From: Dehalococcoidia bacterium
GTDB lineage: Bacteria; Chloroflexota; Dehalococcoidia; UBA2979
DNA: 64,000 nt
NCBI GenBank assembly: GCA_965219085.1
Contig: OZ244720.1
Location: forward strand, 320,001 to 384,000
Reading direction: 5' to 3'
In this document: positions 9,485 through 37,618 of the stretch, in pieces
How the letters are laid out: the number at the start of each line of letters is the position of its first letter
Position numbering within the stretch: position 1 is the stretch's first letter
Made by a program: the position numbers and the translations under genes
Notes under the pieces: generated by a model
Databases searched by the model: none
Told to the model about the DNA's origin: nothing
The model's input: the letters and a program-made list of their open reading frames with translations, nothing else

Positions 9485-9610
9485 CGTGACGCTCTCCCGG
9501 CATCGTGGTAAGTGCCGAGCGGCACAATTGGGACGCAAGTTTGTTTGCTCCGAGGGAGAGCGATTCTGCTAGTGAGACAGATACGTTTGCTCTGAAGGTC
9601 GCTTCGCGAG
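9485..9610. promoter_or_regulatory. Conserved ~125-bp upstream element, copy A
   Basis: GACGCTCTCCC..TAAGTGCCGAGCGGCACAAT..TTTGTTTGCTCCGAGGGAGAGCGATTC..GGTCGCTTCGCG; homologous to copies at 17.9, 25.6 and 37.5 kb, always upstream of a minus-strand surface-protein gene. Confidence 0.8.
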
Positions 9611-9676
9611 CTCTGGCTGCGAGAGTTCTGCTGCTCTTCTCATGAGTTAGCGTGAGGGCCTGGAGCTACCTCCGGC

Positions 9677-11099
9677 GAGGTATACCCGAAAGTTGTGGAT
9701 GAGCCAGGAGCGAGAGGAGGCGTACCCTCCCTGAGTCCAGTAGCAGGTGGCCGGTGGAAGCCGGCCGGGAGGAGTACGCCGGATGTTGAGGGTAGTGCAT
9801 GAGGGAGGCGAGCGCGAAGGGAGACCCGGGCCGCAGGTCGGCCTGGACGAGCTCTGCCGCCTGGCCGCCCAGGAGATGCTCGCGGTGGCGCTGGAGGCCG
9901 AGCGCCAAGCCTACCTCGAGCGTTACGCCGCCGCCGTCGATGAGGAAGGGCGGCGGCTCGTCGTGGGCAACGGCCACGCCCGCGCGCGAGAGATCACGAC
10001 CGCCGCGGGCCGCATCGCCGTCCAGGCGCCGCGCATCGATGACCGCCGCGACGGGGAGCGCTACATCTCGGCGCTCCTGCCGCCCTACATGCGGCGCTCG
10101 CCGAAGGTGACCGAGGTGCTGCCGCTGCTCTACCTGCGCGGGCTCTCGACGGGCGACTTCGTCCCGGCGCTGTCGGCCTTCTTCGGCTCGGAGGCGGGCC
10201 TCTCCGCCTCGACCGTGAGCAGGCTCAGCGAGGCGTGGCAGGCGGAGCACGAGCGCTGGCGGCGGCGCAGCCTCGCCGCGGTCGACTACGTCTACCTCTG
10301 GGCGGACGGCGTGCACTTCAACGTGCGCCTCGAGGAGGACCGGCTCTGCTGCCTGGTGCTGGTGGGCGTACGGCCCGACGGCCGCAAGGAACTCGTGGCC
10401 GTGCAGGACGGCTACCGCGAGGACACGCAGTCCTGGCTCGACCTACTGCGGGAGCTGCGCGAGCGCGGCATGCGCGACCCCGAGCTGGCCATCGGCGACG
10501 GGGCGCTCGGCTTCTGGGCGGCGCTCAGGGAGGTCTTCCCCCGCACGGGCGAGCAGCGCTGCTGGGTGCACAAGACCCAGAACGTACTGGCGGCGCTGCC
10601 CAAGCGCGTGCAGGGGGAGGCGAAGCGGGCGCTGCACGCGGTGTCTGGCGCGGCGACGCGCGCCGAGGCGCTCGCTGCGGCGCGCGCCTTCGGCGAGCAG
10701 TTCGCGCAGTGGCCGAAGGCGACGGCGAAGGTCAGCCACGACCTCGAACGACTGCTGGCGTTCCACGACTTCCCCGCCGAGCACCACGTGCACCTGCGCA
10801 CGACGAACCCGATCGAGTCCAGCTTCGCCACGGTGCGGCTGCGCCAGCGCGTCACGAAGGGCGCGGGCTCGCGGTCAGCGGGGCTGGCGATGGCCTACAA
10901 GCTGCTCGACGCGGCGCAACAGCGCTGGCGGCGGGTGAACGCACCCCAGCTCGTCGCCGCCGTCCGGGCCGGCGGCGTCTTCGCCGGCGGGGTGCTACAC
11001 GAGCGACCGGTCAGCCCGGACGGGAGCAACGAAGCAACTCACGGGAGGTACGCCGCCTGATCTCTCCGATCAGCGATCCACAACTCTTGACGATATCTC
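9677..11099 (+). mobile_element. IS256-family insertion sequence
   Basis: Imperfect 24-bp TIRs GAGGTATACCCGAAAGTTGTGGAT / ATCCACAACTCTTGACGATATCTC; 8-bp target duplication CCTCCGGC (9669-9676, 11100-11107). Confidence 0.95.
9783..11060 (+). CDS. IS256-family (mutator-type) DDE transposase
   Basis: YLWADG, AIGDGALGFW, QRCWVHK, RTTNPIES motifs; ATG 9783 follows GGAGGAG. Confidence 0.95.
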   Translation: MLRVVHEGGEREGRPGPQVGLDELCRLAAQEMLAVALEAERQAYLERYAAAVDEEGRRLVVGNGHARAREITTAAGRIAVQAPRIDDRRDGERYISALLPPYMRRSPKVTEVLPLLYLRGLSTGDFVPALSAFFGSEAGLSASTVSRLSEAWQAEHERWRRRSLAAVDYVYLWADGVHFNVRLEEDRLCCLVLVGVRPDGRKELVAVQDGYREDTQSWLDLLRELRERGMRDPELAIGDGALGFWAALREVFPRTGEQRCWVHKTQNVLAALPKRVQGEAKRALHAVSGAATRAEALAAARAFGEQFAQWPKATAKVSHDLERLLAFHDFPAEHHVHLRTTNPIESSFATVRLRQRVTKGAGSRSAGLAMAYKLLDAAQQRWRRVNAPQLVAAVRAGGVFAGGVLHERPVSPDGSNEATHGRYAA

Positions 11100-11262
11100 C
11101 CTCCGGCTCGGGTGCGGCCCACTCGGCGTCGACCAGCGGCGCCTCGGCATCCGGCGCGACCTGCTGCGCCTGGGCGAAGACCGACTCGACCGGGTCGATG
11201 TCCTCCTCGCCAGCGACGATCTTCCTCGCCAGCGCGAGCCATCGGGTCGTAGCCGTCGTCCC
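11100..11262 (-). pseudogene. 3' remnant of ICE-type helicase gene (continues at 9641-9676 across the IS256)
   Basis: GDDG.D.M-LALARKIVAGEEDIDPVESVFAQAQQVAPDAEAPLVDAEWAAPEP, homologous to 38040-38652 and 18249-18545. Confidence 0.8.
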
Positions 11263-35323: not shown

Positions 35324-37281
35324 TAGAGTGTGCTCTCAGTCCACCAGTTGGGGCTGGAGAGCACCACACCGTCCTGGCCGGTCAGCGCGTTTGCCAGGTC
35401 GAGCGAGGGGAAGCCCGGCTCGGTGTCGACGAAGAACCCATTCGGCAGCCAGCCGAGTTCCGATACCCGGCTCACGCCGATCTGATTGCGGACGAAGAAG
35501 TCGTCCACGGCGGCCTGGTCCCAGGCAGCGTCGAACACCAGCAGCACACCGCCGGGCAGCGTCATCAAGGCCCCGGACGGGGAGCGAAACACCGGGAACC
35601 CGCCACTCTTCTGAGCGGTATTGCTGCCGATGTCGCTTCTGACGATCGTCTCTCGCGAACTGATGCCGCCGTCTTTCGTCACGGTCAAATCCACTTGCAA
35701 CCGTGCCTGCAGCGTGCGATCGCCGTCGTCCCAGGTGTAGACGGCGCCCTGGCTCGACGGAAACGCCTCGAGTGTGGGTTGGGTGTTGGAGTCGGGAGTA
35801 TCGGTCTGGTCGCTTATCCCCTCTGGTTCCGACTGATCGACGGGGTCGGGCGGCAGCCTCAGCGCGGCCCGATTGGAGGCGCGGCTCTTCTCAGCGCCGC
35901 GCAGGGCCTTGACTTCGTAGCGGTAGGTCTCGCCCGCCTGAGTCGCGCCGGCGTCGATGTAGCTGGTGGCCACTGAGGCGCTGTTGGCCGGCAGCGTGGT
36001 CAACTGGCCCTGTCCGACGGCGCGCAGGACCTCGTAGCCGGTGACCCTGTCGGCGTCCTCCGCAGGGGCGCTCCAGCTCAGGTCGACCCCGCCGCCGTCA
36101 ACCGCCTCGGCGGTGAGGTCCGACGGGGCAAGGTCAACGGCGTCATGGGGGAGTTGGACCCGGGCCTGGCCGGACGCCTGGCTCCGGTCCTCGCCCCGGA
36201 TGGCCTTGACCTTATAGGCGTAGGTCTCCCCCGCCTCGGTTGCGGTGGTGTCGGTGTAGGCGGTCGCCGTGTTCCCGGTGTCGTCAACCAGGGTGGCAAG
36301 CTCCCCCTCGCCCACGGCGCGCAGTATCTCGTAGCCGGTGACGCTGCCGGCGTCCTCCGCCGGGGCGGTCCAGCTCAGACGAACGGAGGTTGAGGCGGTG
36401 GTGGTGGGGTCCTCCCCCACCAGCACCAGAGACGCGGTCAGGACCACGGCGGTCAGGCCGGTGGGGGCCAAGTCGACGGGGTCGTGGGGGACCTGGACCT
36501 GGGCCTGGCCGGATGCGTCGCTCCGGTCCTCCCCCCGGATGGCCTTGACCTGGTAGGCGTAGGTCTCCCCCGCCCCGGTGGCGGTGGCGTCGGTGTAGGT
36601 CGTGGCCGTTGATTCGGTGTCGGCCACCAGCGTCGCCAGGGAACTCTCGCCCTCGTAGGGCCGCCGGCGCAGAATCTCATAGCCGTCCACGGATTCGGCG
36701 TCCTCGTGAGGGGCGGTCCAGCTCAGGGTCACCTTGTTCCCGACCAGGCTGACCGTCAGGCCCGTGGGGGCCAGGTCTTCAGGGGCCGGCGTGGGTACCG
36801 GCTCCGGGGATGGTGTAGGAGTGGGAATGGGAGTGGGTTCCAGGGTCGAATCCGGCGCTGCCGGGGTCTCGGCCTTGACGTAGCCGGACCACTGGCTGAC
36901 GCCGGTGCGGCTGACCGCCTTCGCCCGGTAGATGTAGGTGCTCGACGCCGATACCGTGCCGTCGGTGTAGCTGGTTTCGGGACCGGCGTTGCTCTCGACA
37001 ACGTTGAAGACCTGGGATGCGTCGGTGTCCCGGTTGCGGCGCAGGATGGCGTAGTGGGTGACCGTCTGGTCCGTCGAGGCCATCCAGGTGAGGGTGACCG
37101 AATCGTGTACCGCCGAGGCCTGGACGCTGGTGGGCTTGGCCGGGGGGTTAGCGCCGGTGGCGGCCGCGGTGGCGGTCACCTCCTGGCTCTGGGCGTGAAC
37201 TGTCAGGGCCACGGCCAGGGTCAGGACCGCGAGTCCGGCAAGGAGCAGCAGGAGCGGCGCGAGACGCCGGGAGGCGATCAC
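35320..37281 (-). CDS. Secreted FN3-repeat protein D1 with C-terminal propeptide/chaperone-like domain
   Basis: Signal ..LAVALTVHA/Q; 4 FN3-like repeats (LSWTAP..DA.SV.GYEILR); C-terminal ~140 aa shared with the product of 51232-52377. Confidence 0.85.
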   Translation of the reverse strand: MIASRRLAPLLLLLAGLAVLTLAVALTVHAQSQEVTATAAATGANPPAKPTSVQASAVHDSVTLTWMASTDQTVTHYAILRRNRDTDASQVFNVVESNAGPETSYTDGTVSASSTYIYRAKAVSRTGVSQWSGYVKAETPAAPDSTLEPTPIPTPTPSPEPVPTPAPEDLAPTGLTVSLVGNKVTLSWTAPHEDAESVDGYEILRRRPYEGESSLATLVADTESTATTYTDATATGAGETYAYQVKAIRGEDRSDASGQAQVQVPHDPVDLAPTGLTAVVLTASLVLVGEDPTTTASTSVRLSWTAPAEDAGSVTGYEILRAVGEGELATLVDDTGNTATAYTDTTATEAGETYAYKVKAIRGEDRSQASGQARVQLPHDAVDLAPSDLTAEAVDGGGVDLSWSAPAEDADRVTGYEVLRAVGQGQLTTLPANSASVATSYIDAGATQAGETYRYEVKALRGAEKSRASNRAALRLPPDPVDQSEPEGISDQTDTPDSNTQPTLEAFPSSQGAVYTWDDGDRTLQARLQVDLTVTKDGGISSRETIVRSDIGSNTAQKSGGFPVFRSPSGALMTLPGGVLLVFDAAWDQAAVDDFFVRNQIGVSRVSELGWLPNGFFVDTEPGFPSLDLANALTGQDGVVLSSPNWWTESTLY

Positions 37282-37487
37282 GAGTTACCCCCGGCCTGCC
37301 AGCACCCACCACAATTCCGGGGGGTACGTATGTGCCAGGTCGCCCTGCACGGCAGACCCCAGCGCGGCGATCGCTTCAGGGGCCAGGAACTGGTCTGTCA
37401 CGCACAACCGGATGCCTTCCCAATTCCCAACCCGGAGTGGCCGGGGCCACCATCGAGCGCATTCCAGCCCGTGATTCGGGTCACATT

Positions 37488-37618
37488 CTTGACGCTCTCC
37501 CGACATCCTCGTAAGTGCCGGGCGGCACAATCGGCGAGTCATTTTGTTTGCTCGGAGGGGGGACGATTCCGCGACTGAGACAGGTACTGCTGTTGTGGCG
37601 GTCGCTTCGCGCGCGATG
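37488..37618. promoter_or_regulatory. Conserved ~125-bp upstream element, copy D
   Basis: GACGCTCTCCCGACATCCTCGTAAGTGCCGGGCGGCACAATCGGCGAGTCATTTTGTTTGCTCGGAGGGGGGACGATTCC. Confidence 0.8.

Follow-up and report, generated by a model that had tools for sequence, protein, structure and literature searches.

What is the non-coding block that recurs in front of secreted-protein genes in the genome of an uncultured Dehalococcoidia bacterium (assembly GCA_965219085.1, contig OZ244720.1)? Four copies of it, called A, B, C and D here, are located in the 64,000-nt stretch analysed in this work (positions 320,001 to 384,000 of the contig, forward strand, hereafter the window), and a preliminary description made from the sequence left three options for them, namely a structured cis-regulatory RNA with a conserved multi-stem fold, a promoter/operator and a folded recombination site. 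The block is most likely a DNA-level control region of an ordinary kind and not a folded RNA. The explanation that we consider probable is a sigma-A-type promoter with about 100 bp of upstream docking sites, which would drive the genes of secreted or surface proteins as part of the regulon of a two-component system consisting of a HisKA_3 histidine kinase and a response regulator of the REC-GerE (NarL/LuxR) type. The element is of a known kind, and the new details are the regulon and its spread.

The four homologous non-coding blocks are indeed present at the places described, with 79% mean column identity; they constitute the repeat family D18 and match each other with E-values from 1e-35 to 1e-117. 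The genome, a single 3.3-Mb contig, harbors eight copies: A to D of the window, E and F just to the left of it, H at 0.76 Mb and G at 3.09 Mb, the last being a 98.8% duplicate of F. All eight are on the strand of their downstream genes, which in the window is the minus strand, and the block is considered non-coding because there are single-base indels inside the core and the reading frames differ between the copies. The location upstream of surface-protein genes was confirmed, the copies being found 153-535 nt before open reading frames (ORFs) with signal peptides and S8 protease, FN3 and cadherin domains. The invariant TTTGTTTG (CAAACAAA on the gene strand) is unchanged in all eight copies, and eight of the nine occurrences of GCAAACAAA in the genome are inside them, while the palindrome GTGCCG-NN-CGGCAC, reported as common to the window's copies, is exact in A, B and D but begins with ATGCCG in C. 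Conservation in spite of differing flanks, also claimed earlier, applies to A and B only, since C and D show 90% similarity across about 470 nt, the gene start included, and the similarity of D and E extends over about 580 nt. D and F are 69% identical by BLAST, and the global pairwise identities of these two are probably too low because of misalignment. The excess of C over G around the core is modest (about 27-30 C versus 15-19 G per 80 nt).

Two models were used to search other genomes: R1, built from the copies of this genome only, and R2, to which the copies from the congener G013 and from G123, a Dehalococcoidia metagenome-assembled genome (MAG), were added. With R1, one copy was found in one of 18 congeners (G013), and among 99 genomes of the same family G013 was detected together with a marginal match in G085 (E 0.0036). 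A pattern scan of genome contigs gave ten matches, one of which (L036, belonging to G123) contains two tandem copies according to the model; the other nine either scored 14.4 bits or less (E 8.5e-4), like the chance match L054, or were not matched by the model at all. The single pattern match in a metagenome contig is in coding DNA and was judged to be due to chance, and the contigs of four DNA runs covering window positions 17850-37750 were many, short and paralogous, and uninformative on the element. R2, in turn, revealed copies in G126 (four), G172 (two and a weak third one), G180 (four) and G222 (three), which belong to four other families of the class, so the impression of a lineage-specific element given by R1 was overturned: the single-genome model had missed the copies from other families, and the model with two further genomes recovered them. 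By R2, the element is present in 5 of the 151 class genomes sampled under strict filters, this genome included, and still in 2 of the 99 genomes of the family, with 17 of the 18 congeners lacking it. The block is recognisable in five families of the class at 41-48% G+C, as compared to 57-62% here. Since every holder outside the family is a single-contig assembly, fragmented MAGs may simply miss the repeat. A literature search on Chloroflexi and on sponge FN3 and cadherin proteins listed no paper on the element, its wider novelty having been checked via Rfam only.

The comparative data favor the promoter/operator option of the preliminary description. At the aligned places, all 23 full copies from seven genomes have a -35-like hexamer, a spacer of 16-18 nt and a -10 hexamer of the form nAnnnT. 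The -35 hexamer is TTACCA in 14 copies, TTACGA in six and TTGGCA, TTACCC and TTTCCA in one each, and the spacer is 17 nt long in 18 copies, 18 nt in four and 16 nt in one. Of the 15 copies in other genomes, 14 have a -10 hexamer of the form TAnnnT, and none of the eight in this genome does; together with a TTGnnn -35 hexamer, TAnnnT is the form preceding the tRNA genes of this genome. In G013, a consensus scan of 500 nt gives exactly one site (shuffle mean 0.2), TTGGCA-16-TAGCAT at the expected place, which is also the top match there (10.5) of a position weight matrix (PWM) built from the tRNA promoters of this genome. Counted from the C of CAAACAAA, homology between the most distant copies in this genome extends to +60 to +65, where the -10 hexamer ends. 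Upstream of the hexamers there are about 100 nt of conserved blocks, including the CAAACA motif and GTG..GGCAC, and their order in the 23-copy alignment is a 5′ block ending in AGAGC, then AGTTGCAGAA-CACTCTC-AGAGC-AACA, a variable stretch, in which one subfamily carries an insertion of 13 nt, and GTG..GGCACTTACCA. The A and T of the -10 hexamer, CACTT and GAGC-AAC are retained in nearly all 23 copies. Few competing sites were seen near the copies of this genome: between the core and the start codon, TAnnnT is absent from the gene strand in seven of the eight copies (E has TAGATT at +83), it is likewise absent within 400 nt upstream of B, F, G and H, and from -250 to the start codon, A, B, F, G and H have no better gene-strand promoter. 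Between copy B and the preceding gene, some 200 nt upstream of the core, there is a terminator-like hairpin of 13 bp, and B is without the second promoter, P, described below.

The synteny with a two-component system is the other line of evidence. Copy H is divergent to an operon coding for a HisKA_3 histidine kinase and a REC-GerE response regulator (L056, 3626-5609, minus strand; 759.6-761.6 kb of the genome), and a copy is divergent to a homologue of the same kinase in all six single-contig holders, that is in this genome, G123, G126, G172, G180 and G222 (twice in the latter), with a gap of 13-468 nt between the kinase match and the element and with the regulator gene after the kinase gene. 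The kinase and the regulator of G123 are 70% and 78% identical to those of this genome, respectively, and the distance from the kinase start codon to the C of the CA motif is 143 nt in both copy H and the distal copy of G123. The regulators adjoining the element are 71-84% identical to the regulator of this genome, compared to 59-63% for the other paralogues in those genomes, and the best matches in the 18 congeners, nine of which have homologues, reach no more than 68%. Co-occurrence of the regulator with the element in the genus looks negative when taken alone and becomes informative only after this comparison of identities with the element-bearing genomes. With the exception of G013, the cognate kinase and regulator are thus linked to the site. 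A paralogous kinase-regulator pair (60-65%) is located 20 kb away from that of copy H (781.0-783.2 kb of the genome).

If the block is such a promoter, the phosphorylated regulator would bind its conserved blocks, namely GTG..GGCAC abutting the -35 hexamer and the CT/AG-rich and CAAACA blocks farther upstream, and would assist RNA polymerase at a promoter that is presumably weak by itself. In this genome the module appears to have been copied, together with its genes and via recombination between leaders, to positions before at least eight genes; its -10 hexamer would have been weakened there, and the box beside the -35 hexamer would have been turned into a perfect 6-2-6 palindrome with the center about 42.5 bp before the predicted start. 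Activation by the regulator, as opposed to repression, is suggested by the intact dyad and weak hexamers here versus the near-consensus hexamers, degraded dyad and broken kinase gene in G013. The perfect dyad is found only in this genome, the others having GTGTGATTAGGCAC and its variants, which retain just GTG and GGCAC, so an inverted repeat of two half-sites conserved across species, as in a NarL/GerE-type target, was not observed.

Several results weigh against the promoter explanation. The transcription start is a prediction, and the first T of the -10 hexamer is replaced by C, G or A in all eight copies of this genome. Their PWM scores, from -1.9 to 4.8, do not exceed what the best site in a random 400-nt window reaches (median 5.5); the core site ranks 3rd of 1119 in A and 3rd of 2265 in H, and from 9th to 61st in the other copies, and a strict consensus scan found no site in three of the window's copies. 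In G013, an assembly of 30 contigs, the kinase homologue is on a different contig from the element and has two stops. In five congeners, no element-like motif was found up to 1.5 kb from the regulator homologues, and none was found near 17 loci with kinase homologues. Copies D and E have a stronger promoter, P, located 120-180 nt upstream of the block (CTGAAG/CCGAAG-17-TACGCT with GCCACC-type repeats) and belonging to a family common to seven loci at 1.86-1.95 Mb, so the block would also be transcribed there as part of a leader. Finally, the covariation score of the fold proposed earlier, calculated for the 23 copies, was reached by 9 of 500 shuffles, a borderline value of a kind that related sequences may yield even without structure. 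This low count is explained by two outer-stem pairs that switch between GC/AU in seven rows and UA/CG in four, and such double changes keeping complementarity are unexpected under a pure independent-site model.

The last two points bear on the rival according to which the block is transcribed on the gene strand from a promoter lying before it and acts as a structured leader RNA, controlling elongation, stability or translation through hairpins presenting the CAAACAAA loop and a GC hairpin. Promoter P in D and E, the two switching outer-stem pairs with their covariation score, one compensatory pair in the second stem and several G-U-compatible changes on the gene strand (C to U in the dyad of F, G and H; A to G in E) speak in its favor. 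The conserved multi-stem fold itself was not supported. The scan of the 64-kb window against Rfam 15 gave no matches at the gathering score, and a search around copy A in E-value mode gave only matches with E-values of 3.7 and 7.1. Minimum free energy (MFE) z-scores of the eight copies on both strands are from -1.5 to +1.0, and the MFE folds vary among the copies, with the fold described earlier being returned by copy A only. RNAalifold gave -16.7 kcal/mol with one compensatory pair for the gene strand, -17.7 kcal/mol with none for the other strand and -12.6 kcal/mol with one pair after G013 was added. The outer 9-bp stem is complete (9/9) only in A and C; B and D have 7/9 (D with one G-U), E has 8/9, and F and H have 5/9. 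The supposed compensatory change from GGAG/CTCC to CGAG/CTCG requires a 1-nt register shift and is a single event common to D and E. In the eight copies, 82.6% of the cells of the three proposed helices are paired compared to 82.0% after shuffling (189 of 500 shuffles being as high), and in the larger alignment of 23 copies the values are 66.1% and 65.1% (74 of 500), with 65% pairing in the outer stem and 50% in the second. With one arm rich in CT and the other in GA, the outer stem can pair in several registers by composition alone, and for this reason, as well as because of the kinship of the sequences, the borderline covariation was not counted as support for the fold. Moreover, the palindrome is not preserved outside this genome, the 3′ arm of the outer stem is inside the spacer between -35 and -10, and the copies at the kinase operons have no upstream gene-strand promoter which could transcribe the block. 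A structured leader RNA is therefore regarded as unlikely.

A recombination site or anchor is the least probable of the rivals, and it is quite doubtful that the copies are merely functionless duplicated spacer DNA, similar to each other only via recent duplication and gene conversion. In the former case gene conversion or cassette exchange between surface-protein genes would make use of the 5′ block together with the conserved 3′ end of the giant genes, with the 6-2-6 dyad being perhaps a crossover site of a serine recombinase. The copies are mosaic, with the four possible combinations all occurring at 73 of 190 informative site pairs. Two 5′ types and two 3′ types are combined reciprocally in A and B, which switch somewhere between columns 74 and 115 of the alignment, in the region of the dyad, and it follows from the mosaicism that recombination between the leaders continues. 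A large serine recombinase gene is situated about 1 kb upstream of copy D, and the core-bearing segment of about 285 nt found in the leaders of C and D is an indel between leaders bounded by imperfect direct repeats of about 40 nt (37597-37650 and 37366-37407). However, the switch points are off the dyad center, the left-arm column 89 goes with F and H and not with A, and ordinary homologous recombination would also place the exchange in the longest identical stretch; no recombinase adjoins the other seven copies, flanking inverted repeats as in an invertible switch were not found, the perfect dyad is confined to this genome, and the conserved -35 and -10 hexamers and the synteny with the kinase are left unexplained. 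The mosaicism also shows concerted evolution, as the spacer explanation would have it, and the core is no better conserved between D and E (85% identical) than its neighbors (86% far upstream, 79% in P and 82% in the downstream leader), just as C and D are equally alike throughout. In G013, 46 of 62 invariant columns are kept versus 36 of 62 variable ones, which is only a trend (Fisher p = 0.087). On the other hand, the block is recognisable in five families despite the difference in G+C content, promoter P of the same genes was detected in none of the 18 congeners, the A and T of the -10 hexamer, CACTT and GAGC-AAC persist across the copies, and both position and orientation relative to the kinase operon and the secreted-protein genes are conserved.

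Some other candidates were tried and rejected. A CRP/FNR-type site (TGTG-N8-CAC) was dismissed as there is no cNMP-binding domain in the genome and the sole HTH_Crp_2 match is below the cut-off; TGTG-N8-CACTT has only three matches outside the copies. A sigma-54 promoter was discarded since there is no Sigma54_DBD match in the genome, as was an antitermination leader of the ops/RfaH or LoaP type, with just one NusG-domain gene and no specialised paralogue being present. A wider regulon of the palindrome is not suggested by the 84 occurrences of the dyad (one mismatch at most) genome-wide, nor by the seven leaders with P only, in which two matches (two mismatches at most) were found versus 1.75 expected. 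An insertion sequence (IS) end or a miniature inverted-repeat transposable element was rejected because of the lack of flanking inverted repeats and the fixed orientation before secreted-protein genes, the nearby IS elements being separate insertions, and an invertible switch was rejected because flanking inverted repeats were not found.

As an extension of the promoter explanation, it is conceivable, though we hold it only tentatively and as somewhat doubtful, that the block and the kinase-regulator pair form a self-propagating module, which moves between Dehalococcoidia families and is copied before new secreted-protein genes, rewiring them to one sensor. The patchy distribution (2 of the 99 genomes in the family, yet four other families) would be one pointer to such a module, and the tandem copies and the 285-nt core-bearing segment inside a leader mini-gene of C and D are others. 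A regulator up to 84% identical across families and no more than 68% within the genus, taken together with that distribution, points to possible transfer of the module as a whole, as far as comparison of sequences can suggest it.

The coordinates of the features discussed are listed in Table 1.

Table 1 Features of the four copies and their surroundings in the window. Positions are those of the 64,000-nt stretch, distances are given relative to the predicted transcription start, and bit scores refer to model R2.
Feature	Position	Strand	Remarks
Universal core, copy A	9483..9593	-	about -117 to -7 from predicted start; 107.5 bits
Universal core, copy B	17936..18046	-	113.9 bits
Universal core, copy C	25554..25664	-	108.5 bits; decayed copy
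Universal core, copy D	37485..37596	-	101.5 bits
CAAACAAA motif, copy A	9540..9547	-	about -71 to -64
CAAACAAA motif, copy B	17993..18000	-	
CAAACAAA motif, copy C	25611..25618	-	
CAAACAAA motif, copy D	37543..37550	-	
14-bp dyad GTGCCGCTCGGCAC, copy A	9512..9525		abuts -35; center about -42.5
14-bp dyad, copy B	17965..17978		
Dyad with one change, ATGCCGCTCGGCAC, copy C	25583..25596		
14-bp dyad GTGCCGCCCGGCAC, copy D	37515..37528		
-35-like TTACCA, copy A	9506..9511	-	
-35-like TTACGA, copy B	17959..17964	-	
-35-like TTACGA, copy C	25577..25582	-	
-35-like TTACGA, copy D	37509..37514	-	
-10-like CACGAT, copy A	9483..9488	-	A at place 2 and T at place 6 kept in 23/23 copies
-10-like CAAGAT, copy B	17936..17941	-	
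-10-like CAGCGT, copy C	25554..25559	-	
-10-like AAGAAT, copy D	37485..37490	-	18-nt spacer
Second promoter P of copy D (CCGAAG, 17 nt, TACGCT)	37727..37755	-	
Core-bearing segment of about 285 nt	37366..37650	-	in C and D leaders; absent from P-type leaders at 1.86 and 1.92 Mb
Gene of copy A: giant secreted S8 protease / FN3 / cadherin protein	2..9394	-	3777 aa in the genome
Gene after copy B: signal peptide and FN3, 590 aa	15982..17754	-	followed by 423-aa and 1127-aa pieces in other frames
Gene after copy D: signal peptide and FN3, 653 aa	35320..37281	-	followed by 3075-aa protease gene 26096-35323
IS256-family element	9677..11104	+	transposase 9747-11060; 130 nt upstream of CAAACAAA of copy A; 98% copy at 1.98 Mb

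The genes behind the copies are diverse and include those of FN3 proteins, giant proteases, a 928-aa haem peroxidase and a lipoprotein, all the assigned ones starting with signal peptides; at loci L102 and L110 there is no clear downstream gene. The genes of C, D and F share the signal-peptide start. The gene behind copy B is present in three pieces in different frames (590, 423 and 1127 aa; 11294-17754, minus strand), and the giant gene of copy F is in two parts (1940 + 1680 aa), while its duplicate behind G is whole (3850 aa). Before the giant gene of F, at about +271 to +520 from the CA motif in L007, there is a frameshifted remnant of a small "partner" gene (MIGSRR.., like VIASRRLAPLLLL.. 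of D). Copy C is dead, the -35 and -10 hexamers of its P being deleted and its gene being cut by an IS256-family element just after the signal peptide. The peroxidase, a secreted animal-type haem protein of G123 (L076, 8596-11382, minus strand; Pfam An_peroxidase, E 8e-148), resembles the FN3 protein behind copy H in its N-terminal part.

The leaders have some further features. A mini-gene at 37651-37700 in copy D (segment "S") and 25711-25756 in copy C, as well as in L064 (1407-1670, minus strand), L096, L097, L106 and L110, consists of a strong Shine-Dalgarno sequence (GGAGGAGG in the other genomes, GGGAGG here) and a small ORF coding for (M/V)ALDRPVHAPET.., and it is this mini-gene that the 285-nt segment splits in C and D. 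The peptide is kept across families with many silent changes and in one P-type leader of this genome extends to ..ALGSAVQGDLAHAYP. Between the leader and the ribosome site there are homopolymer runs, C7 followed by T9 in copy C (25388-25394 and 25377-25385), and C6 in copy D (37319-37324), the locus at 1.92 Mb having C14. Translated in the mini-gene frame, the C run gives prolines (..YPPP), and it could be a stalling or slippage site besides, or instead of, a promoter spacer. The preceding giant genes end in a conserved tail (..FEWALER..GR and the stop codon) followed by a perfect or near-perfect GC hairpin of 13-18 bp without a T run (18202-18234 and 38006-38042), which is probably the terminator of each unit.

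On the opposite strand, the 5′ block and the 40 nt before it contain promoter-like hexamers, TTGCTG-18-TAGATT in G180, G222 and one copy of G126 (L098, L099, L102, L103, L107, L110 and L111) and TTGTGG-17-GAGATT/TACATT at the same place in copy H and G123, directed toward the kinase gene. Given these hexamers, which were read by eye, the module may be bidirectional.

The array also carries several mobile elements. Transposase genes of the Mutator/IS256, DUF772 + DDE and IS110 types are located at 24007-25230, 19923-20399, 20512-21597 and 44542-45516, all on the plus strand, and another IS256-type transposase gene is situated about 370 nt upstream of copy G. The large serine recombinase gene mentioned above (38528-40246, minus strand) codes for a protein with Resolvase, Recombinase and Zn-ribbon domains and separates the tail of a giant gene from the terminator/promoter region of copy D. 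The right end of the window has genes of a LysR-type regulator (53330-54259, minus strand) and a nickel superoxide dismutase (59399-60307, plus strand), for which no link to the element was seen.

For uncultured Dehalococcoidia, the promoter explanation provides a testable regulon comprising one kinase-regulator pair and a recognisable promoter module before giant adhesin-like and protease genes. It also strikes one candidate for a new structured RNA off the list and illustrates that repeats of such a kind are missed in fragmented assemblies.

Among the known systems, promoters with "7-2-7" sites for NarL of E. coli are comparable; one NarL site situated 32 bp before the -10 hexamer is reported to suffice for induction there (PMC9314961). 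Similar to this case, a HisKA_3 kinase and a REC-GerE regulator are encoded beside the element, and in this genome the box next to the -35 hexamer consists of two inverted arms of 6-7 nt, 2 bp apart, with the center about 30 bp upstream of the -10 hexamer. Unlike the NarL case, the perfect dyad is limited to this genome, the organism, the signal and the target genes, which code for secreted proteins, are different, and binding is only predicted. The arm sequence of the dyad is, we assume, unrelated to the NarL heptamer.

LuxR-type boxes are located at about -42.5 in quorum-sensing promoters. The block may be analogous to them in having a dyad box which overlaps or abuts the -35 hexamer, a weak -35 hexamer and a protein with a GerE-type helix-turn-helix as the candidate binder, although this candidate is a phosphorylation-dependent response regulator and not an autoinducer receptor. 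The vsp genes of Mycoplasma bovis are each preceded by a highly conserved 70-bp non-coding sequence and share a conserved signal peptide (PMC3365025), and this arrangement is similar in that paralogous genes of variable surface proteins each have a common upstream block, with the signal-peptide start being partly common here (C, D and F). In contrast to vsp, the block described here also precedes unrelated genes, occurs in further families of the class, is linked to a two-component system and shows no sign of site-specific inversion.

Promoters that multiply within genomes are known as "putative mobile promoters". The block has neither a transposase of its own nor terminal repeats, and gene duplication and recombination can explain its spread, but it is similar to mobile promoters in being present in many copies per genome before unrelated genes, in forming tandem duplicates (G123 and G172) and in appearing as an indel relative to sister leaders.

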